Source of the DNA: a virus | Taxonomy: Duplodnaviria; Caudoviricetes | IMG/VR virus record: IMGVR_UViG_3300007508_000433 | Coordinates: 1 to 61,933 of that record | DNA length: 61,933 nt | Strand: one strand, 5' to 3' | Shown here: positions 38,811-59,984 of the stretch, in pieces | Layout: each line of letters begins with the position of its first letter | Numbering within the stretch: position 1 is the first letter of the stretch | The notes under the pieces: model-generated | Databases searched by the model: none | What the model was told of the DNA's origin: nothing | What the model saw: only the letters and a program-made list of their open reading frames with translations | Program-made: the position numbers and the translations under genes

Positions 38811-38976
38811 TGATTGTCCACGTTGTAGCGATGAGGGTATCATTGTGTACCTTGAAGGAGCGGAGGAGGAGTCGTATAGGATAGTCGTTCCTTGGACTCT
38901 CATTGAGGAGACTATCTCCACGTTCGTCAGGGAGGCCGTAGAGGGCGCGAGTGAAGGTCCCTCCGATGAGTCGTGA
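38803..38976 (+). CDS. Small hypothetical protein (57 aa)
   Basis: MIDDCPRC...; overlaps both neighbours. Confidence 0.5.
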   Translation: MIDDCPRCSDEGIIVYLEGAEEESYRIVVPWTLIEETISTFVREAVEGASEGPSDES

Positions 38977-39976
38977 GTATCTTAGTTTTGATGATGTCTT
39001 AATTGAGCCTCAGCATTCTGCTGTGCGTAGCCGGAGTGATGTTAGCCTTAAGACAAAACTGTATGATGGGTTTGAGTTGGATCTCCCCATTATTGCTTCT
39101 AATATGGATACTGTGTGTGAGTTGGATATGGCGATTGCGATGTCTGAGCTTGGCGGCTTGGGTGTGATTCATCGCAACTTGATTCATGCCACGCGTATTC
39201 ATTGTATACGCCAGTTAACGAGCATGGGTTTGGCTTCTGCTGTGGCTATGGGTGTTAACGAATTGCGTCTTTCTCCTGTGAGGCGGTATATTGAGGAGGG
39301 TGTCCGGTACATTGTGTTGGATATTGCTCATGGAGATTCTGTTCATGCTTTAAAGGCTGTGGAACAATTGAGGAGCATGTCTGATAAGCACGGCGGGGCT
39401 GTTTGTATCATTGGTGGCAATGTGGCTACTCCTGATGCTGTTGGCCGTATGGCTGATGCTGGTGCTCATTGTGTCAAGGTGGGGATCGGCCCGGGCGCAG
39501 CATGCTTGACGAGGATTAACACAGGGGTGGGTATACCTCAGCTGTCTGCCATTCTTGAGTGTTCTCATGCCGCAGATTTGCATGGCGTGGGGTGTATTGC
39601 TGATGGTGGTATGAAGACTCCGGGTGATATTGCTAAGGCTTTGGCTGCTGGTGCCGATGCTGTAATGCTTGGTGGAATGTTGGCTGGCACGTTTGAGTCT
39701 CCGGGTGATGTTGTGGATATTGATGGCGAAAAGTTTAAAACTTACCGAGGAATGGCATCGAATGGTGCGGGATCCATGTATATTGAGGGTGCTGAGGGTT
39801 TTGTTAAGTATAGCGGCAAGGCTGGGGATGTAGTAAACGATATTTCTGACGGTTTGCGTAGCGCTTTTTCATATGTTGGGGCTAGTGACATGGCCGAGTA
39901 CCACTCAAAAGCCCTTTTTGTGCGCATTTCTACGGCATCTATCCTCGAAAACGGCGCTCACGGTACTATTACATGA
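38966..39976 (+). CDS. IMP dehydrogenase/GMP reductase family protein, CBS-less
   Basis: FDDVL; SNMDTV; GGLGVIHRN; DIAHG; [13 protein letters not shown]; IADGG; YRGMAS; GLRS..SYVG. Confidence 0.9.
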
Positions 39977-47332: not shown

Positions 47333-47556
47333 TGACAGCACTATTGACATTCAATGAGTTTGCTGAAGGTGTTTCAAAGCAGACTTTTGACTTTGGTTAC
47401 GATGTGAGCGATTGGCGTCAAGGCCAATATTTTTTCAACGTTCTTTGCTCGTTGAACAATGATGTAGCAGAGAAGTTGCGTGGAGCAGGACTCGATCCTT
47501 TTCATAGGGATAAAGTTTCAATGGAAACATGGCAGTTCGTAGAAACGAACTGGTAA
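47332..47556 (+). CDS. Conserved phage hypothetical protein
   Basis: WR.GQ..FN.L...A..LRG..LDPF motif. Confidence 0.65.
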   Translation: MTALLTFNEFAEGVSKQTFDFGYDVSDWRQGQYFFNVLCSLNNDVAEKLRGAGLDPFHRDKVSMETWQFVETNW

Positions 47557-47578
47557 TCTAGACAAAGGACTGATAGAT

Positions 47579-47848
47579 ATGAATAACGAAGCCATTAGGG
47601 TTTGTGCTGAGATAGCATATTCTACTGAGAGTGGCGCTGTCCATTCCGACGTTTGTCCACCCGGACATTTGTTTGAGAATATCGACAGCGAGGAGCGTAA
47701 GCTGTTGCATCAGTTTTTGGATGAATGGCTGAACGAATCTGGCGGCACTGGTTGTTTCTTTGTGGGTGATAGTGACTACTATCGCTTTATTCCTGATCAG
47801 AGCATTATTCCTGCGTTGGCGAAACTAATAGATCGGAGTAGATGGTGA
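47579..47848 (+). CDS. Hypothetical protein
   Basis: ORF with RBS. Confidence 0.55.
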   Translation: MNNEAIRVCAEIAYSTESGAVHSDVCPPGHLFENIDSEERKLLHQFLDEWLNESGGTGCFFVGDSDYYRFIPDQSIIPALAKLIDRSRW

Positions 47849-49389
47849 GTTATATTAAGATAACTAACACTACATCAAGCGTGCCCAGATTGTATCTGGA
47901 GATTCTTGGTGTATCGACCAAGCGTGACAGCGACATTACTATCGGCCAGTTTGGTTCTGGTACAAAGTTTGCTCCTATTTACGCTTTGCGTGAGGGGTTG
48001 GAGTGGATTAATACTGGCTTTGATAGTCATGGTGGTTACACTATGTCGTATCAGGTTTCTGATGATAATGATGAAGGCCTGGATCTGGTCGAGTTTGTCT
48101 ATGAAGATATGGACGGACATATAACAAAAAAGCCTTCATCTTATTCTTTGGGTGCTGGCGAACTTGGATGGAATCATCCCTTCCAGATATTCCGTGAGGC
48201 TTTTGCTAACGCTCTGGATGCTCACTATGAGTTTGACGAAGGCTATTCTATTGACAGGGTTGATGAGATTGAACCTCCTGTTGAGGGTGAGTTTTCTGTT
48301 TACCTTACTGCTTCTGATGGTCTTATTGAAGTTGTTGATAACTTTGATAAGTATTTCTCCTTGGAGCGCACTCCTCTCTTTGAGGATAGCAGGGGGAACA
48401 AGGTTTATGAAAAGCTAATGTCTGTGCCTTATGATGGTGTTAGAATCTACCATAAGGGTGTTCTTGTTTATGGTGGAGAGCTTGAGCATGACGATACCCC
48501 TTCATTGTTTGATTATGATTTGAAGGAAGTTAGCCTTAATGAGGAGCGTCGTTTGAGTGATGTTTCTGCTAACGAGATATATACCATTGCTAAGATTATC
48601 GGTGAGAATGAGCATTACACTAACAGCACTGGAATAAGGCCGGTTGTTGATAGTATCATTGACAACTGCAATGAAAGTGAGAGCGGTAAGCCTGACGGCG
48701 TGTGGGAGTACAACTTTTCTTACGCTTTCAGGATGCAGCATTGGTATGATGTTCAGCCTCAAGATAGCGATTCATTCGGTAATCAGTTTGTGGCTGCGAT
48801 GACAGCCAAGTATTGTGATGAGACATATAGCGATATTGCATTTGTTAGCGATAGAGCTGCGGCATTCTATGAGATTGAGATTAATTTGAATGAGCGTGGG
48901 CGTAAAGCTATACCAGTTTCTGACTCTATGTATGAACTTCTAAACACTACTGGTGCTAAGGAGTGGATGGATAAAAACATACTTGGCGAAGAGTATGACA
49001 CTCCCTTTGTTGAGTTGGATGGTATTGATCTTGAGGTGTTTAACTTTGCATATGAGAGTGTCGCTGAATATGACACTGACATATTGAACATCCCCGTAAA
49101 GATTATGCAAAGCACAGCTTACAATACCGGTATTCAGGGTAAGGCTATGAATGTGCATGACGACAGCAAAAGAACTGTTATTGCTTTGAGTCAGGCATTG
49201 ATTGAAGGTCGGAATATGCAGCAAATTATTGCTACTATGCTACATGAACTTGATCATGCTGTTACTGGTGCTGCAGATAACACTAGGGCTTTCCGCGACG
49301 CTGCAGATAATCGCCTAGGTGATCTAATCATCAGGCACTACTGTAGCAAGGTGGATTTGGCTAAACTAGTTAACAAGACGGAGGTGTAA
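47842..49389 (+). CDS. GHKL-like ATPase fused to C-terminal HExxH metallopeptidase-like domain
   Basis: G.STKR..IGQFGSGTK; REAFANALD; LHELDH. Confidence 0.65.
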   Translation: MVSYIKITNTTSSVPRLYLEILGVSTKRDSDITIGQFGSGTKFAPIYALREGLEWINTGFDSHGGYTMSYQVSDDNDEGLDLVEFVYEDMDGHITKKPSSYSLGAGELGWNHPFQIFREAFANALDAHYEFDEGYSIDRVDEIEPPVEGEFSVYLTASDGLIEVVDNFDKYFSLERTPLFEDSRGNKVYEKLMSVPYDGVRIYHKGVLVYGGELEHDDTPSLFDYDLKEVSLNEERRLSDVSANEIYTIAKIIGENEHYTNSTGIRPVVDSIIDNCNESESGKPDGVWEYNFSYAFRMQHWYDVQPQDSDSFGNQFVAAMTAKYCDETYSDIAFVSDRAAAFYEIEINLNERGRKAIPVSDSMYELLNTTGAKEWMDKNILGEEYDTPFVELDGIDLEVFNFAYESVAEYDTDILNIPVKIMQSTAYNTGIQGKAMNVHDDSKRTVIALSQALIEGRNMQQIIATMLHELDHAVTGAADNTRAFRDAADNRLGDLIIRHYCSKVDLAKLVNKTEV

Positions 49390-49394
49390 CTGCT

Positions 49395-49610
49395 ATGACA
49401 GATATGTCGTTTCAAGCAACGTATATTGTTTCTGATGAAATTGTTGATCAGATACGCTTATCGTTAGAGCACATATGGTGGGCTGCTCCAGAAGATATCC
49501 CTGAGGATAATGAGAAGGCCGTACAGTTCTGGGTTGATGTGGTCTTGGATTCAACTATTGACAATGAACATGAAGTCCTACTAGATATGGATGAGGTGGA
49601 CTATGAATGA
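49395..49610 (+). CDS. Acidic hypothetical protein
   Basis: GGAGG RBS. Confidence 0.55.
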   Translation: MTDMSFQATYIVSDEIVDQIRLSLEHIWWAAPEDIPEDNEKAVQFWVDVVLDSTIDNEHEVLLDMDEVDYE

Positions 49611-50049
49611 AGTAGTGTTTGATTCTGATACCAACTATTTTTGTGATCGTTGTGGTAAAATAACTAAGAGTATGTTCCCAGAACTTGGGCATAGTGCCCG
49701 GACTCAGATTAAGGCCGGGTTGCACATCGAGGTCATTGGTTATTATGGTGGCTTCTATGACACTTATCTGGATGATGGACCTGATGTTATTCACTTCTGC
49801 CACGATTGTTCTCTATGGTTTGCTAGAGAGGTTGGCGCCATTTCTGAAAGAAGCAAGGGCGGTCATCCTTGCGACAGCGAGTCGGAGCGGTGTTGCGAGT
49901 ATGCGTGGTCTCCAGAAGAAGAGACTATGGAGATACTTAGCGATCCTGAATGGATGAAGTCCTTGGCCGAGGCTCAGGAGGATGTTGATTCTGGTAATCT
50001 GGTAGATTTCAAAGATATTGAAACATCGACAATGAACCGGGAGGTTTGA
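49603..50049 (+). CDS. Zn-binding protein with C-terminal Phd/YefM-antitoxin-like segment
   Basis: CDRC..GYYGGF.D..CHDC; tail EETMEILSDPEWMKSLAEAQEDVDSGNLV. Confidence 0.6.
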   Translation: MNEVVFDSDTNYFCDRCGKITKSMFPELGHSARTQIKAGLHIEVIGYYGGFYDTYLDDGPDVIHFCHDCSLWFAREVGAISERSKGGHPCDSESERCCEYAWSPEEETMEILSDPEWMKSLAEAQEDVDSGNLVDFKDIETSTMNREV

Positions 50050-50246
50050 TTATGGCTAAGGCTAGAAAGAAAAGGCGCGTTGTTCCTAAGTCTAAGCAGC
50101 GCTATCAGGTAGAGACAAGTGGTAAGGATTATGTGATTGTCGATACTGGCGCCACAACTAAGAGATATCGTAATATCGAGACTTTGAAGAAAAGTAGCGA
50201 TGCTATTCGTAAATGCCGTGAGTTTAACCGTTACCTTGAGGGGTGA
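50046..50246 (+). CDS. Basic hypothetical protein
   Basis: GGAGG RBS; K/R-rich. Confidence 0.55.
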   Translation: MIMAKARKKRRVVPKSKQRYQVETSGKDYVIVDTGATTKRYRNIETLKKSSDAIRKCREFNRYLEG

Positions 50247-50251
50247 AGTAA

Positions 50252-50632
50252 ATGACTGATACTGCAGAAGTAACGAGTGATCAGGATGCCAATGATCATT
50301 ATAGTAGCTATACCGAATTGGTGGGTGATTATCTTGAAGTTATCAATGACAATGTTGATGATGATGACGCCCTTGAGGAAAATCTTCACTATCTAGAGTG
50401 CATGATGCTTGCAAGAGATGAGCATAGGGTTATTGATGTTTGTCTTGCTACAGGTGGGCCAGCGGTTCATGTCTTATACCACATTAAAGACAAAGAGATA
50501 ATAAACATTGTATTCAAGTTCGTAGACTGGTTCTACGTAAAAGAGTTTAAGGTCAGCCCTGGCTCTAAAGAGTGGGCTATCTGGGAAGATGCAGCGCAGT
50601 ACTTTATCATAGATATTCTTGAGGAGTGGTGA
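50252..50632 (+). CDS. Acidic hypothetical protein (LATGGP motif)
   Basis: ORF with RBS. Confidence 0.6.
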   Translation: MTDTAEVTSDQDANDHYSSYTELVGDYLEVINDNVDDDDALEENLHYLECMMLARDEHRVIDVCLATGGPAVHVLYHIKDKEIINIVFKFVDWFYVKEFKVSPGSKEWAIWEDAAQYFIIDILEEW

Positions 50633-50717
50633 TGAATAACGAGCTGGCTTTGTTGAAGAGAAGCCCGCAGAGGATTATCCCACAGAGAGGCCACATTACG
50701 AATAGCTCTAACGGTTT

Positions 50718-50840
50718 GTCGGGCTAAGTCTGGTAATCCTTAATCCAGATTAAGGACAGCCTGCATGTCATTTGATCGTTTACGGTCAGTGACTTGTTAA
50801 CGAGTTTTCGTCATCGTGTCCCAAAGGTTGTCCGCCCGAC
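50718..50840 (+). ncRNA. Candidate structured RNA (multi-stem junction)
   Basis: GTCGGGC/GCCCGAC closing stem; AGTCTGG/CCAGATT; GGACAGCCT/AGGTTGTCC; inner hairpins; lies in a coding gap. Confidence 0.45.
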
Positions 50841-50870
50841 TGTTCTATACTAATAGTGATTGGAGATCAC

Positions 50871-51014
50871 ATGGAAGATGATGAGAGTTTTATTATACTG
50901 GATGAAGAGAGGTGGGATGAGTTGATGGCCATGCTTGATGCTCCCCCTAAACGTCTCCCAGGTCTATTAAAGCTAATGCGGTCAAAGATGCCGTGGAGTG
51001 ATGATGGAAAATAA
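50871..51014 (+). CDS. 47-aa peptide resembling the C-terminal half of DUF1778/TacA antitoxins
   Basis: GGAG RBS; IILDEERWDELMAMLDAPPKRLPGLLKLMRSKMPW. Confidence 0.6.
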   Translation: MEDDESFIILDEERWDELMAMLDAPPKRLPGLLKLMRSKMPWSDDGK

Positions 51015-51052
51015 GCATACACATCCCCCGATAAAGGGGTGCTTGGTGCCAG

Positions 51053-51307
51053 ATGAGTACATGGCTGATTGGCTTAATTGTCATGTTTGTCATGACGACC
51101 TTGATGCATACATGGAGGAAGATAATGAATCTATATGATGATATTGCACAGGAAGAACACTGGGACTTTTTACGATCTCTTGGTGATGCCGTGAGAGATG
51201 TTGAGCTTAATATTAGGCTTATACATGAGCCCCCACCTCCTCCTTCCGAGGAAGAATGGGCTGCTATTATTGCAAGTTATGAGGCGGATTCTTATGATGG
51301 TCGGTAA
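51053..51307 (+). CDS. Hypothetical protein, N-terminal hydrophobic helix
   Basis: ORF; alternative internal start MNLYDD with GGAGG. Confidence 0.5.
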   Translation: MSTWLIGLIVMFVMTTLMHTWRKIMNLYDDIAQEEHWDFLRSLGDAVRDVELNIRLIHEPPPPPSEEEWAAIIASYEADSYDGR

Positions 51308-51506
51308 GAAACTATATGTATATGATCCTATAGGTCATGACTTGTATGACGGTAGAACGTCATGTATTGCTGGCACTGTTGTTGTTAAGGTGCAGCCTCC
51401 GGGGTGTCCTGTGAATGGAACAATGAAGCATTGCTATATTGCAGACGCTGAAACTGGGGGTTTCTATGGCCTAGTTTTGGAGAATAGCTTGGTGCCTTGT
51501 GAGTAG
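51294..51506 (+). CDS. Conserved phage hypothetical protein
   Basis: V.KVQP.GCP.NGTM.HCY..GLV..NSL motif. Confidence 0.6.
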   Translation: MMVGKKLYVYDPIGHDLYDGRTSCIAGTVVVKVQPPGCPVNGTMKHCYIADAETGGFYGLVLENSLVPCE

Positions 51507-58326: not shown

Positions 58327-58457
58327 TGTCTGATCCTTTGATGATAAATATAGACAGTGCGCCTACTTATGAGGAAGTCATTAAAGCCAGGGGTAAGGAT
58401 GAAACTGAGGTTAAGAAGACCAAGCCCCGTGAGTTGAAAGGATATAGCGTAGCATGA
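58326..58457 (+). CDS. Small hypothetical protein (43 aa)
   Basis: TGATG and ATGA coupling. Confidence 0.45.
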   Translation: MSDPLMINIDSAPTYEEVIKARGKDETEVKKTKPRELKGYSVA

Positions 58458-58672
58458 CTATCACCAGAAATGCTGTACAGTGCAATAACTGCAATGAGGT
58501 GATTGAGTCTGTCCATAGGCATGACTTTGTTGTGTGCAAGTGTGAGGACGAAAACCTTCAGGTTTTTGTTGATGGAGGGCATGCATATTTTCGTATGATG
58601 TTTGGCAAGCATGCTAGTTGGACAGATCTAAGTGAAACAACAGACAACGAAGAAAGAATCGAGGAAAAATAA
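58454..58672 (+). CDS. Conserved phage Zn-binding protein
   Basis: NA.QC..C..VIES.HRHDF..C.C...VDGG..Y. Confidence 0.7.
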   Translation: MTITRNAVQCNNCNEVIESVHRHDFVVCKCEDENLQVFVDGGHAYFRMMFGKHASWTDLSETTDNEERIEEK

Positions 58673-59410: not shown

Positions 59411-59611
59411 ATGTCGATTCACGTATCACATAGAGATTTGTCTGCTATGGAGGATGAAATAGTGGCCAAGATGGATGATGTAATGAATCTTCCCGGCAGC
59501 AAGTATCAGTACGTTATGCATAAGTATGGTGGATGCATTAGTTGCTGGGAGCAAATTAATGACGCTCTAGACAATATCTATGCAAAGATAAGGGGCAATC
59601 ATGGAAAATGA
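59411..59611 (+). CDS. Hypothetical protein
   Basis: AGGAG RBS. Confidence 0.5.
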   Translation: MSIHVSHRDLSAMEDEIVAKMDDVMNLPGSKYQYVMHKYGGCISCWEQINDALDNIYAKIRGNHGK

Positions 59612-59984
59612 TATGGAGATAGGTGTTTTTGTTGAAGTTGGCATGGACATGGAGTGGCGAAGGCGTGCTTCCTGTAGGGGTTTGGATACGGATGCTTTCT
59701 TTCCCGGCAGAGGAGAGTCTCTTGCTGCTTTGAAGAGTTATTGCAAGTTTTGCCCTGTTGTTAAGCCATGTCTTGAGTATGCATTTCGCTCTATGGAGAA
59801 GTTTGGTATTTGGGGTGGGACTTCTGAAAAGGAGCGGCGCAAGGTGAGAAGTCTTATGCAGCGCAATAGGGAGTCAGGAAGAAAGATGTCTTTGACAGAA
59901 ATGTTGCGCACCTTGGGTGTCAACTATACACACATAGATGATGACAAGCTTGAATCTTTTACCGGAGAAGCCCCCTACTGTTAG
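59601..59984 (+). CDS. whiB: WhiB-family transcription factor
   Basis: W..RASC..D.FFP; CKFCPV..PCL; GIWGGTSEKERR. Confidence 0.92.
   Translation: MENDMEIGVFVEVGMDMEWRRRASCRGLDTDAFFPGRGESLAALKSYCKFCPVVKPCLEYAFRSMEKFGIWGGTSEKERRKVRSLMQRNRESGRKMSLTEMLRTLGVNYTHIDDDKLESFTGEAPYC

Follow-up and report, generated by a model that had tools for sequence, protein, structure and literature searches.

A linear viral contig of 61,933 bp from IMG/VR (IMGVR_UViG_3300007508_000433, here called the window) codes for two small proteins that resemble the toxin-binding ends of type II antitoxins from two unrelated families. One is a peptide of 47 residues that corresponds to the C-terminal hook of the TacA/DUF1778 antitoxins. 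The other is a chimera of 148 residues, in which a Cys/His-rich viral domain is followed by a C-terminal tail of the RelB/YefM type. A preliminary description of the locus had reported fragments of two antitoxin families here, and both have been confirmed. We lean toward the view that the two proteins are orphan 'antitoxin-tail' decoys, which act independently of each other in counter-defense against the toxin-antitoxin (TA) systems of the host. The features concerned are the following.

49603-50049, + strand: chimeric protein of 148 residues, a Cys/His-rich viral domain plus a RelB/YefM-type antitoxin tail
49915-50022, + strand: tail module of this protein (residues 105-140, EETMEILSDPEWMKSLAEAQEDVDSGNLVDFKDIE), homologous in sequence to the C-terminus with which RelB/Rv2865-type antitoxins wrap their toxins
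50871-51014, + strand: orphan peptide of 47 residues, C-terminal part of a TacA/DUF1778 antitoxin (PF08681)

The TacA-like peptide

The open reading frame (ORF) of 47 codons matches the Pfam family TacA1 (PF08681) with an E-value of 1.4e-7 and 31.8 bits, the cut-off being 21 bits. The match is confined to positions 43-76 of the 80 in the profile. Positions 1-42 have no counterpart in the peptide, so that the N-terminal RHH domain, which is responsible for DNA binding and dimerization, is missing. When the Protein Data Bank (PDB) was searched with phmmer, the peptide matched the C-terminal parts of DUF1778/TacA chains (9ilr_B, 7f37_C, 7ak7_C and 7ak8_G). The PDB matches include constructs that consist of the C-terminal antitoxin peptide only, namely 9ilr_B (42 residues), 7ak8_G, the 'TacA1 antitoxin peptide' (39 residues), and 6gtq_C (46 residues). 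The peptide (...SFIILDEERWDELMAMLDAPPKRLPGLLKLMRSKMPW...) is laid out as a strand, a helix, a PP linker, a second helix and a PW pair, and contains nothing more. It has, at the level of its sequence, the C-terminal toxin-binding hook of the TacA/DUF1778 proteins. In KacA, the C-terminal strand-helix-PPAP-helix segment wraps the GNAT toxin KacT and constitutes the high-affinity interface. Mutations in this C-terminal part abolish neutralization, whereas a truncation of ten N-terminal residues does not (PMC6698736).

The ORF likely starts at the ATG, which is preceded by a GGAG sequence 7 nt upstream, and not at the GTG at 50856. The ATG fits because an identical product of 47 residues is found on 22 public contigs, where PF08681 is present in the precomputed annotation. 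A word-index search with the peptide returned the query's own clusters only, and a tblastn search of cultured phages gave no match.

The chimeric protein and its tail

The N-terminal part of the 148-residue protein (approximately residues 1-104) is a Cys/His-rich viral domain with the pattern CxxC...CHDCS...GGH...CCEYA. The Cys and His columns are invariant in the family alignment (A1), which comprises few homologs. The whole protein matches no family in Pfam, NCBIfam, PHROG or PADLOC, and nothing meaningful in the PDB. A sub-threshold match to STI1-HOP_DP was judged to be compositional. In the ESM Atlas the Cys-rich domain is found in unnamed viral clusters only, and the zinc-finger families listed score below 0.9 and are leads only. 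The AlphaFold2 model, calculated with four sequences, has a mean predicted local distance difference test (pLDDT) value of 41.7 and is unusable. The Phd/YefM fold is not present at the N-terminus: its place is taken by the Cys/His-rich domain, which is common to viral proteins that have no tail, and PF02604 is found neither in the 148-residue protein at E≤1 nor in protein P0002 at E≤10.

Among the homologs of the protein, the last ~45 residues are restricted to the proteins of the window and of L002, a contig from a marine metagenome. The more distant homologs (P0003 and a 125-residue protein of loci L004 and L005) either end after CCEYA or bear a different end. A profile of the two tails (A2) was used for an exhaustive search over 1.84 billion representative proteins. 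There are 74 matches at E≤1e-3, or 73 besides the query. In 56 of these 73, no more than 15 residues separate the end of the match from the C-terminus. The Pfam family found most often among them is PF02604, the Phd/YefM antitoxin (15 of 73); the others are DUF2683 (4), RHH_1 (2), RelB-like (2) and singletons such as DUF3310.

The alignment of the phage family with ten proteins composed of Phd/YefM plus the tail has an hhalign probability of 97.85% and an E-value of 6.5e-13 over 36 columns. It pairs residues 105-140 of the 148-residue protein with residues 55-90 of the antitoxins. The profile of these ten antitoxins, in turn, matches RelB (9g12_C, 4e-22) and Rv2865 (3g5o_A, 5e-18) through the tail. 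Judged from these alignments, the C-terminal toxin-wrapping tail of the RelB/Rv2865 subtype is present in the 148-residue protein. The C-termini of antitoxins wrap and mask their toxins, for example in the RelB-RelE complex (PMC6698736).

The genomic surroundings of such tailed antitoxins were analyzed at 80 loci, mostly from metagenome-assembled genomes of Actinomycetota, and the antitoxin ORF could be located at 73. A downstream ORF, with a median length of 91 residues, overlaps the antitoxin by 4 nt at 61 of the 73 loci. Twenty of these 61 downstream ORFs were sampled, and all 20 belong to PF05016 (ParE_toxin, RelE/ParE superfamily). Furthermore, the tail co-folded with a stand-in actinobacterial ParE/RelE toxin scored 0.48, compared to 0.00 for the best of three controls. 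Of 80 solved complexes, 58 reach this mark, as do two of 110 mismatched pairs; only seven of the 80 do so at 0.60 or under, and so do both of these mismatched pairs. At least 87% of the contacts are the same between co-fold runs, and the pLDDT of the partner is at least 67.

Both modules could have been exapted for purposes that have nothing to do with TA defense. The tail would then be a generic helical interaction or oligomerization segment of the Cys-rich domain, and the TacA-like peptide would regulate a different partner, such as a non-toxin GNAT acetyltransferase encoded by the host or the phage. Indeed, the tail is attached to many unrelated N-termini among the 73 hits (DUF3310, RHH, DUF2683 and long repeat proteins), the Cys-rich domain is widespread in viruses without the tail, and the decoy reading names no host toxin. 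Exaptation is nevertheless unlikely. In every cellular context checked, the tail belongs to an antitoxin whose gene is followed directly by that of a ParE/RelE toxin, and the TacA match coincides exactly with the toxin-contacting region of the solved complexes. Moreover, a shared anti-TA role is a simpler explanation for two independent antitoxin-derived modules in one phage.

Other public scaffolds also carry the RelB-type tail, namely a DUF3310 protein (P0059), an RHH-like protein (P0020) and a CxxC protein (P0077), and P0007 is a Phd/YefM protein with two tandem RelB-type tails. Many tail hits are only 40-70 residues long and are encoded on contigs of mostly 1-3 kb; such hits could represent either tails that stand alone or gene calls that were cut short.

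Conservation of the locus

L002 is the sole diverged relative found. Two stretches of the window, 47532-50652 and the part beginning at 50898, are collinear with it (70-75% nucleotide identity), and it holds orthologs of every gene at 49.4-51.3 kb. The ratio of nonsynonymous to synonymous substitution rates (dN/dS) between the two is 0.03-0.27 for the six genes for which it is computable, with dS at or near saturation. The genes of the locus are therefore real and are under purifying selection. Both antitoxin-like genes have retained identical lengths in L002. The ortholog of the TacA-like peptide has 47 residues, of which 64% are identical (dN/dS 0.19). For the gene of the 148-residue protein dN is 0.23 and dS is saturated.

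In a seawater metatranscriptome library, a contig of 246 nt spans 50868-51113, corresponding exactly to the TacA-like ORF and the beginning of the ORF that follows. It is only a hint of expression: such libraries can contain DNA, and the missing cover outside 50868-51113 in this library is not evidence.

Absence of toxin partners

The entire window (61.9 kb) has no match to PF05016 (ParE_toxin), PF00583 (Acetyltransf_1) or PF13508 (Acetyltransf_7). The ORFs that adjoin the 47-residue peptide gave no GNAT hit. Forty other ORFs, of the 48 called between 43.8 and 61.9 kb, have no match to any TA family at E≤0.001. Neither antitoxin-like gene has a toxin beside it in the window, and the flanking ORFs in L002 are non-toxin as well.

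The contig is estimated to be ~59% complete, with ~41% of the genome missing. The two proteins might then be the antitoxin halves of phage-borne modules, the toxins of which are encoded in the unsequenced part or were recently lost, and which serve in addiction, superinfection exclusion or self-regulation, or are decaying remnants. Besides the incompleteness of the contig, a recent loss of genes at the locus, for which the scar at 50650-50705 is evidence (see below), and the citation in PMC9964418 of another cyanophage with a type II TA pair speak for this possibility, which we consider quite improbable. The partners of such modules are almost always adjacent and co-transcribed, but the flanking ORFs are non-toxin here and in L002. 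An autoregulated pair is not expected to lose its DNA-binding domains. Decay is at odds with the dN/dS of 0.19 and with the unchanged lengths of both proteins in a relative for which dS is saturated.

Proposed function

A counter-defense role is the most natural reading of the two proteins, and we infer their binding, targets and timing. The 47-residue peptide would represent the C-terminal hook that, in the TacA/DUF1778 antitoxins of cells, wraps GNAT toxins, which are aminoacyl-tRNA acetyltransferases of the TacT/KacT/AtaT type. The 148-residue protein would present, on its Cys/His-rich viral domain, the RelB/YefM-type tail that in cells wraps toxins of the RelE/ParE family. When infection stops host gene expression, the labile antitoxins of the host would decay and the toxins would be set free. 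The phage proteins would bind the freed toxins one-to-one, so that translation could continue, and abortive infection mediated by TA systems would be blocked. Because the RHH and Phd/YefM domains for DNA binding and dimerization are missing, both proteins would be pure decoys that take no part in the autoregulation of an operon.

Several points weigh against this interpretation. The specificity of type II antitoxins is usually restricted to the cognate toxin (PMC11825919), so that a target toxin would have to be present in the host. No evidence was found for GNAT-RHH systems, or for this RelBE/ParDE subtype, as anti-phage defense in marine actinobacteria. With a contig that is ~59% complete, a phage-borne toxin partner may lie elsewhere in the genome. 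The tail, when searched alone, has no match in Pfam, NCBIfam or the PDB; its word-index search returned the query's own clusters only, and tblastn against cultured phages gave no match. The co-fold lends weak support, as the toxin is a stand-in and the pass may reflect a likeness to, or memory of, the solved RelBE complexes. Finally, conservation rests on one diverged relative, L002. Four sequencing runs (three of DNA and one metatranscriptome library) are near-identical to the window and have one single-nucleotide polymorphism, which all four share. This change, G to A at 50911, replaces Arg14 of the 47-residue peptide with Lys, the residue found in L002.

Neighboring genes

The locus contains the following further genes.

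49395-49610, + strand: acidic protein of 71 residues, overlapping the start of the 148-residue gene; dN/dS 0.27 versus L002
50052-50246, + strand: basic protein of 64 residues, pI (isoelectric point) 10.4, charge +11.5
50252-50632, + strand: acidic protein of 126 residues, pI 4.1, charge -21
51001-51138, + strand: acidic, Cys/His-containing ORF of 45 residues, overlapping the 3' end of the TacA-like gene; dN/dS 0.085 versus L002
after the 45-residue ORF, within the locus at 49.4-51.3 kb: overlapping ORF of 60 residues

The 71-residue protein has no family match in scans of Pfam, NCBIfam and PHROG. A very basic and a very acidic protein were part of the locus as first described. The former is as basic as was stated; its amino acid identity with the L002 ortholog is 70% and its only family match is a weak one, to PHROG 6742 (E 0.0043). 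The 126-residue protein is indeed acidic, but this is not a distinctive property, as seven other proteins for which the pI was computed have values of 4.1-4.4. Its dN/dS versus L002 is 0.16, and its nearest clusters in the ESM Atlas consist of hypothetical viral proteins that belong to no named family. Neither the basic nor the acidic protein has a TA or defense-related match in the family and PADLOC scans, and no evidence ties them to the antitoxin modules.

The 45-residue ORF is probably co-translated with the TacA-like gene, and in L002 its ATG overlaps the stop codon of that gene. Several tiny Cys-rich ORFs are found in this arm of the genome, among them the 45-residue protein, which has a C...CxxC pattern (51001-51138), and a DUF7695 protein (58454-58672).

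Directly upstream of the locus is a 515-residue protein (47842-49389) with a HELDH (HExxH) motif near its C-terminus and sub-threshold matches to SprT-like (E 0.0034) and WLM (E 0.012) metalloproteases. Its N-terminal half matches PHROG 8203 (1e-13), and the L002 ortholog is 71% identical (dN/dS 0.11). The N-terminal sequence GQFGSGTKFA may resemble the motifs of GHKL/Hsp90-type ATPases.

The intergenic segment

The region between the 126-residue and TacA-like genes had been described as a folded non-coding segment, which might be a decoy RNA or a regulator of the downstream peptide. It has the following parts.

50633-50855, 223 nt: gap between the 126-residue and TacA-like genes, the 'folded non-coding segment'
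50632-50727, + strand: ORF of 31 residues, the start of which overlaps the stop codon of the 126-residue gene (ATGA)
50650-50705, + strand: 3' remnant of an 89-residue gene of L002, ~19 codons and a stop; the frame is closed upstream
50706-50870, + strand: lineage-specific spacer of 165 nt, directly upstream of the TacA-like gene

The stretch between the two genes is 752 nt long in L002 compared to 245 nt in the window. In L002 it contains a 60-residue ORF coupled to the upstream gene, a 98-residue ORF and an 89-residue ORF, the stop codon of which overlaps the start of the TacA-like gene. Apparently, ~0.7 kb with these three small ORFs (L002 9033-9780) has been deleted in the window (50632-50705). 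The end of the 89-residue gene has survived at 50650-50705, where tblastn finds 65% identity over 17 residues (E 1.3e-5, in a small search space). The frame GFVEEKPAEDYPTERPHYE and its stop codon match ...VCVEKEKAQDYPIERPRYE and the stop codon of L002, and the nucleotide alignment agrees. As 50650-50705 encodes the end of a gene, a deletion scar makes up the first third of the 'non-coding segment'. The 31-residue ORF has only its first ~7 codons in common with the 60-residue ORF of L002 and then reads the remnant out of frame. It is probably a by-product of the deletion and not a conserved gene. A TTGAAGA-like microhomology is seen, by eye, in the alignment at the deletion junction.

The 165-nt spacer contains the predicted fold and a 9-bp inverted repeat (I1, 50737-50745 and 50748-50756). 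By eye, a TATACT box is recognized at 50845-50850, ~20 nt upstream of the ATG, together with the GGAG ribosome-binding site; a scan of the + strand of 50633-50870 for consensus sigma-70-type promoters and terminators found no site. Nothing corresponding to the spacer is present in L002, elsewhere in the window or at the other loci, and the 20-nt palindrome was not found in the viral contigs of IMG/VR. The fold described earlier is real to the extent that, on the + strand, it is better than that of shuffled sequences, with a z-score of -2.48 (shuffles as good numbered two of 200 for 238 nt and four of 200 for 143 nt). On the - strand it is no better than the shuffles (z -0.73). The segment has no Rfam match at the gathering score, with only sub-threshold hits to C/D-box snoRNAs at E≤10. 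There is no further copy of it in the window (7 exact 11-mers, 6.7 expected), and 50600-50900 has no families of direct repeats of the ToxI kind. The near-identical sequencing runs offer no diverged copy for an analysis of covariation. Most likely, the spacer provides the expression signals of the TacA-like operon and is a simple expression cassette.

Two genes or one island

The preliminary description saw the locus as a clustered counter-defense system. That two toxin-binding fragments are present there without toxins and without DNA-binding domains is borne out; the island is not. In such an island the basic protein, the acidic protein and a structured RNA would work together with both fragments, the RNA as a pseudo-antitoxin decoy or as a regulator of the downstream peptide. 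The strand-specific fold, the position of the spacer immediately upstream of the TacA-like gene and the collinearity of all the protein genes in L002 are compatible with it. However, a z-score of about -2.5 from a single sequence is weak and there is no diverged copy for covariation. Neither role of the RNA is supported: the segment lacks direct repeats of the ToxI kind, an Rfam family, conservation and a second copy in the window, and part of the supposed RNA is a gene remnant. L002 has no such spacer, and its TacA-like gene overlaps the gene upstream. With the basic and acidic proteins also lacking any TA or defense-related match, the integrated island is very improbable.

The arrangement of the genes points in the same direction. 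Gene order in relatives had been proposed as a check on the cluster, and the order of the protein genes is indeed the same in L002. The two antitoxin-derived modules are four genes apart in the window, but farther apart in L002, where extra genes lie between them and the spacer is missing. A tblastn search of L003-L005, where the Cys-rich domain is found in more distant carriers, revealed no other element of the locus. In an arm of ~48 genes two modules would fall within four genes of each other by chance in ~17% of cases, according to a rough estimate, and their proximity is not remarkable. Because of this chance proximity, the wider spacing in L002 and the distant carriers without the other elements, the two modules are best regarded as two independent genes with a shared theme and not as an integrated island.

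Genome context

The + strand carries all the long ORFs of the window. They code for a tape-measure-like protein, tail-fiber-like proteins, DnaB and a DnaE-type PolIII alpha subunit, as well as the following.

38951-39976: enzyme of the IMPDH/GMP-reductase family (PF00478, E 2.4e-94), likely an auxiliary gene of nucleotide metabolism
59601-59984: WhiB-family transcription factor (PF02467, E 8.9e-21)

WhiB proteins are known only from Actinomycetota and their phages, and for this reason the label 'actinophage', given to the DNA earlier, is reasonable. Among cultured phages, the closest PolIII alpha proteins are those of Streptomyces phages (~38% identity), which agrees with the label. Near-identical DNA was found in marine and seawater metagenome runs of two studies, and the window can reasonably be considered a fragment of a marine actinophage genome. 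Public assemblies include contigs of 88-105 kb from this phage group. Region 49300-51400 has no DNA match in cultured phages. Protein-pattern scans of IMG/VR with the 148-residue protein, P0002, the 515-residue neighbor and the TacA-like pair found no close relatives. A scan of genome contigs with the TacA-like pair found no relative and hence no clue to the host. The first 2 kb of the window have a G+C content of 63%, compared to 42-50% across the remainder; an ORF in this part (579-1808) codes for a protein with fn3 and glycine-rich domains.

Significance

Phages may routinely take only the disordered, toxin-gripping tails of type II antitoxins, either free or grafted onto unrelated scaffolds, which would constitute a modular class of anti-TA proteins. 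This generalization is tentative. The free form would be represented by the 47-residue TacA hook, and the grafted forms by the Cys-rich domain here and by DUF3310 and other N-termini in the databases. If it is true, ordinary domain annotation misses such modular proteins, and the locus would be the first natural pair in a marine actinophage to be directed against both the GNAT and the RelE/ParE toxin families. A stable scaffold with a borrowed disordered tail would explain the escape from standard annotation. Profiles of tails only, in place of whole-antitoxin profiles, suggest themselves as a strategy for finding hidden anti-TA genes. Whether type II TA systems are a natural defense against phages is still debated. 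Phage genes that consist of the neutralizing part only would be indirect evidence for such a defense, since their presence implies that phages are selected for the ability to disarm such toxins. Furthermore, the two proteins are small, natural and DNA-binding-free predicted toxin binders.

Comparison with known systems

Orphan antitoxin decoys are known and have a bioinformatic precedent; the especially new part is the chimera of scaffold plus tail. Type II antitoxins are hard to recognize owing to their disorder and specificity (PMC11825919). A counter-defense overview of November 2026 covers DarTG and ToxIN in its section on TA inactivation, and type II antitoxin fragments do not appear in the available text of that section (PMC13728456). 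No experimental report of a phage type II antitoxin fragment as counter-defense was found in the literature, as far as its available text extends.

The closest published case is the 'Tac antitoxin peptide', ORF106 of Synechococcus phage S-CREM1 (GenBank OP535465; PMC9964418). Here, too, the phage is marine and lytic, the protein is an orphan with no toxin beside it, and the similarity to TacA is limited to the C-terminal motif (...IVLSQEDFDTLLERLNEPP...KPAPW). However, ORF106 matches positions 45-68 of PF08681 with 15.5 bits, which is below the Pfam cut-off, and is annotated as 92 residues long with an unrelated N-terminal extension. S-CREM1 also carries genes annotated as YefM (ORF54) and MazE (ORF155), and its authors proposed that host toxins are neutralized (PMC9964418). 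The antitoxin genes are scattered in this T4-like cyanomyovirus genome, whereas the two modules of the window are four genes apart. The tail profile A2 has no match in the S-CREM1 genome.

T-even phages have orphan antitoxins that resemble DarG1, namely AdfN and other phage NADAR proteins. AdfN is, to its authors' knowledge, the first antitoxin homolog of a lytic phage that serves counter-defense (PMC11825919). As would be the case here, a lytic phage has co-opted a toxin-less homolog of a cellular antitoxin against TA defense. AdfN, however, is an enzyme that follows type IV logic and reverses a modification (PMC11825919), whereas the proteins of the window would be stoichiometric binders derived from disordered type II tails.

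The cellular TacA, KacA and AtaR antitoxins (DUF1778, RHH) have the same C-terminal strand-helix-PP-helix hook, ending in PW, as the 47-residue peptide. They are ~90 residues long, and the peptide differs from them in having neither the RHH domain nor an adjacent GNAT toxin. The cellular antitoxins RelB (9g12_C) and Rv2865 (3g5o_A), which have a Phd/YefM fold and RelE/ParE partners, share with the 148-residue protein the tail ET-x-E-I-L-x-D-x-E-...-D-x-x-x-G. In the phage protein a Cys/His-rich viral domain replaces the Phd/YefM N-terminus and there is no adjacent toxin.

Substitute antitoxins made by phages include the pseudo-ToxI RNA of phage PhiTE and the Dmd protein of T4. Pseudo-ToxI is an RNA of tandem repeats, and Dmd is not known to be homologous to cellular antitoxins. 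In contrast, the intergenic segment of the window has no repeats, and both proteins of the window are homologous to cellular antitoxins.

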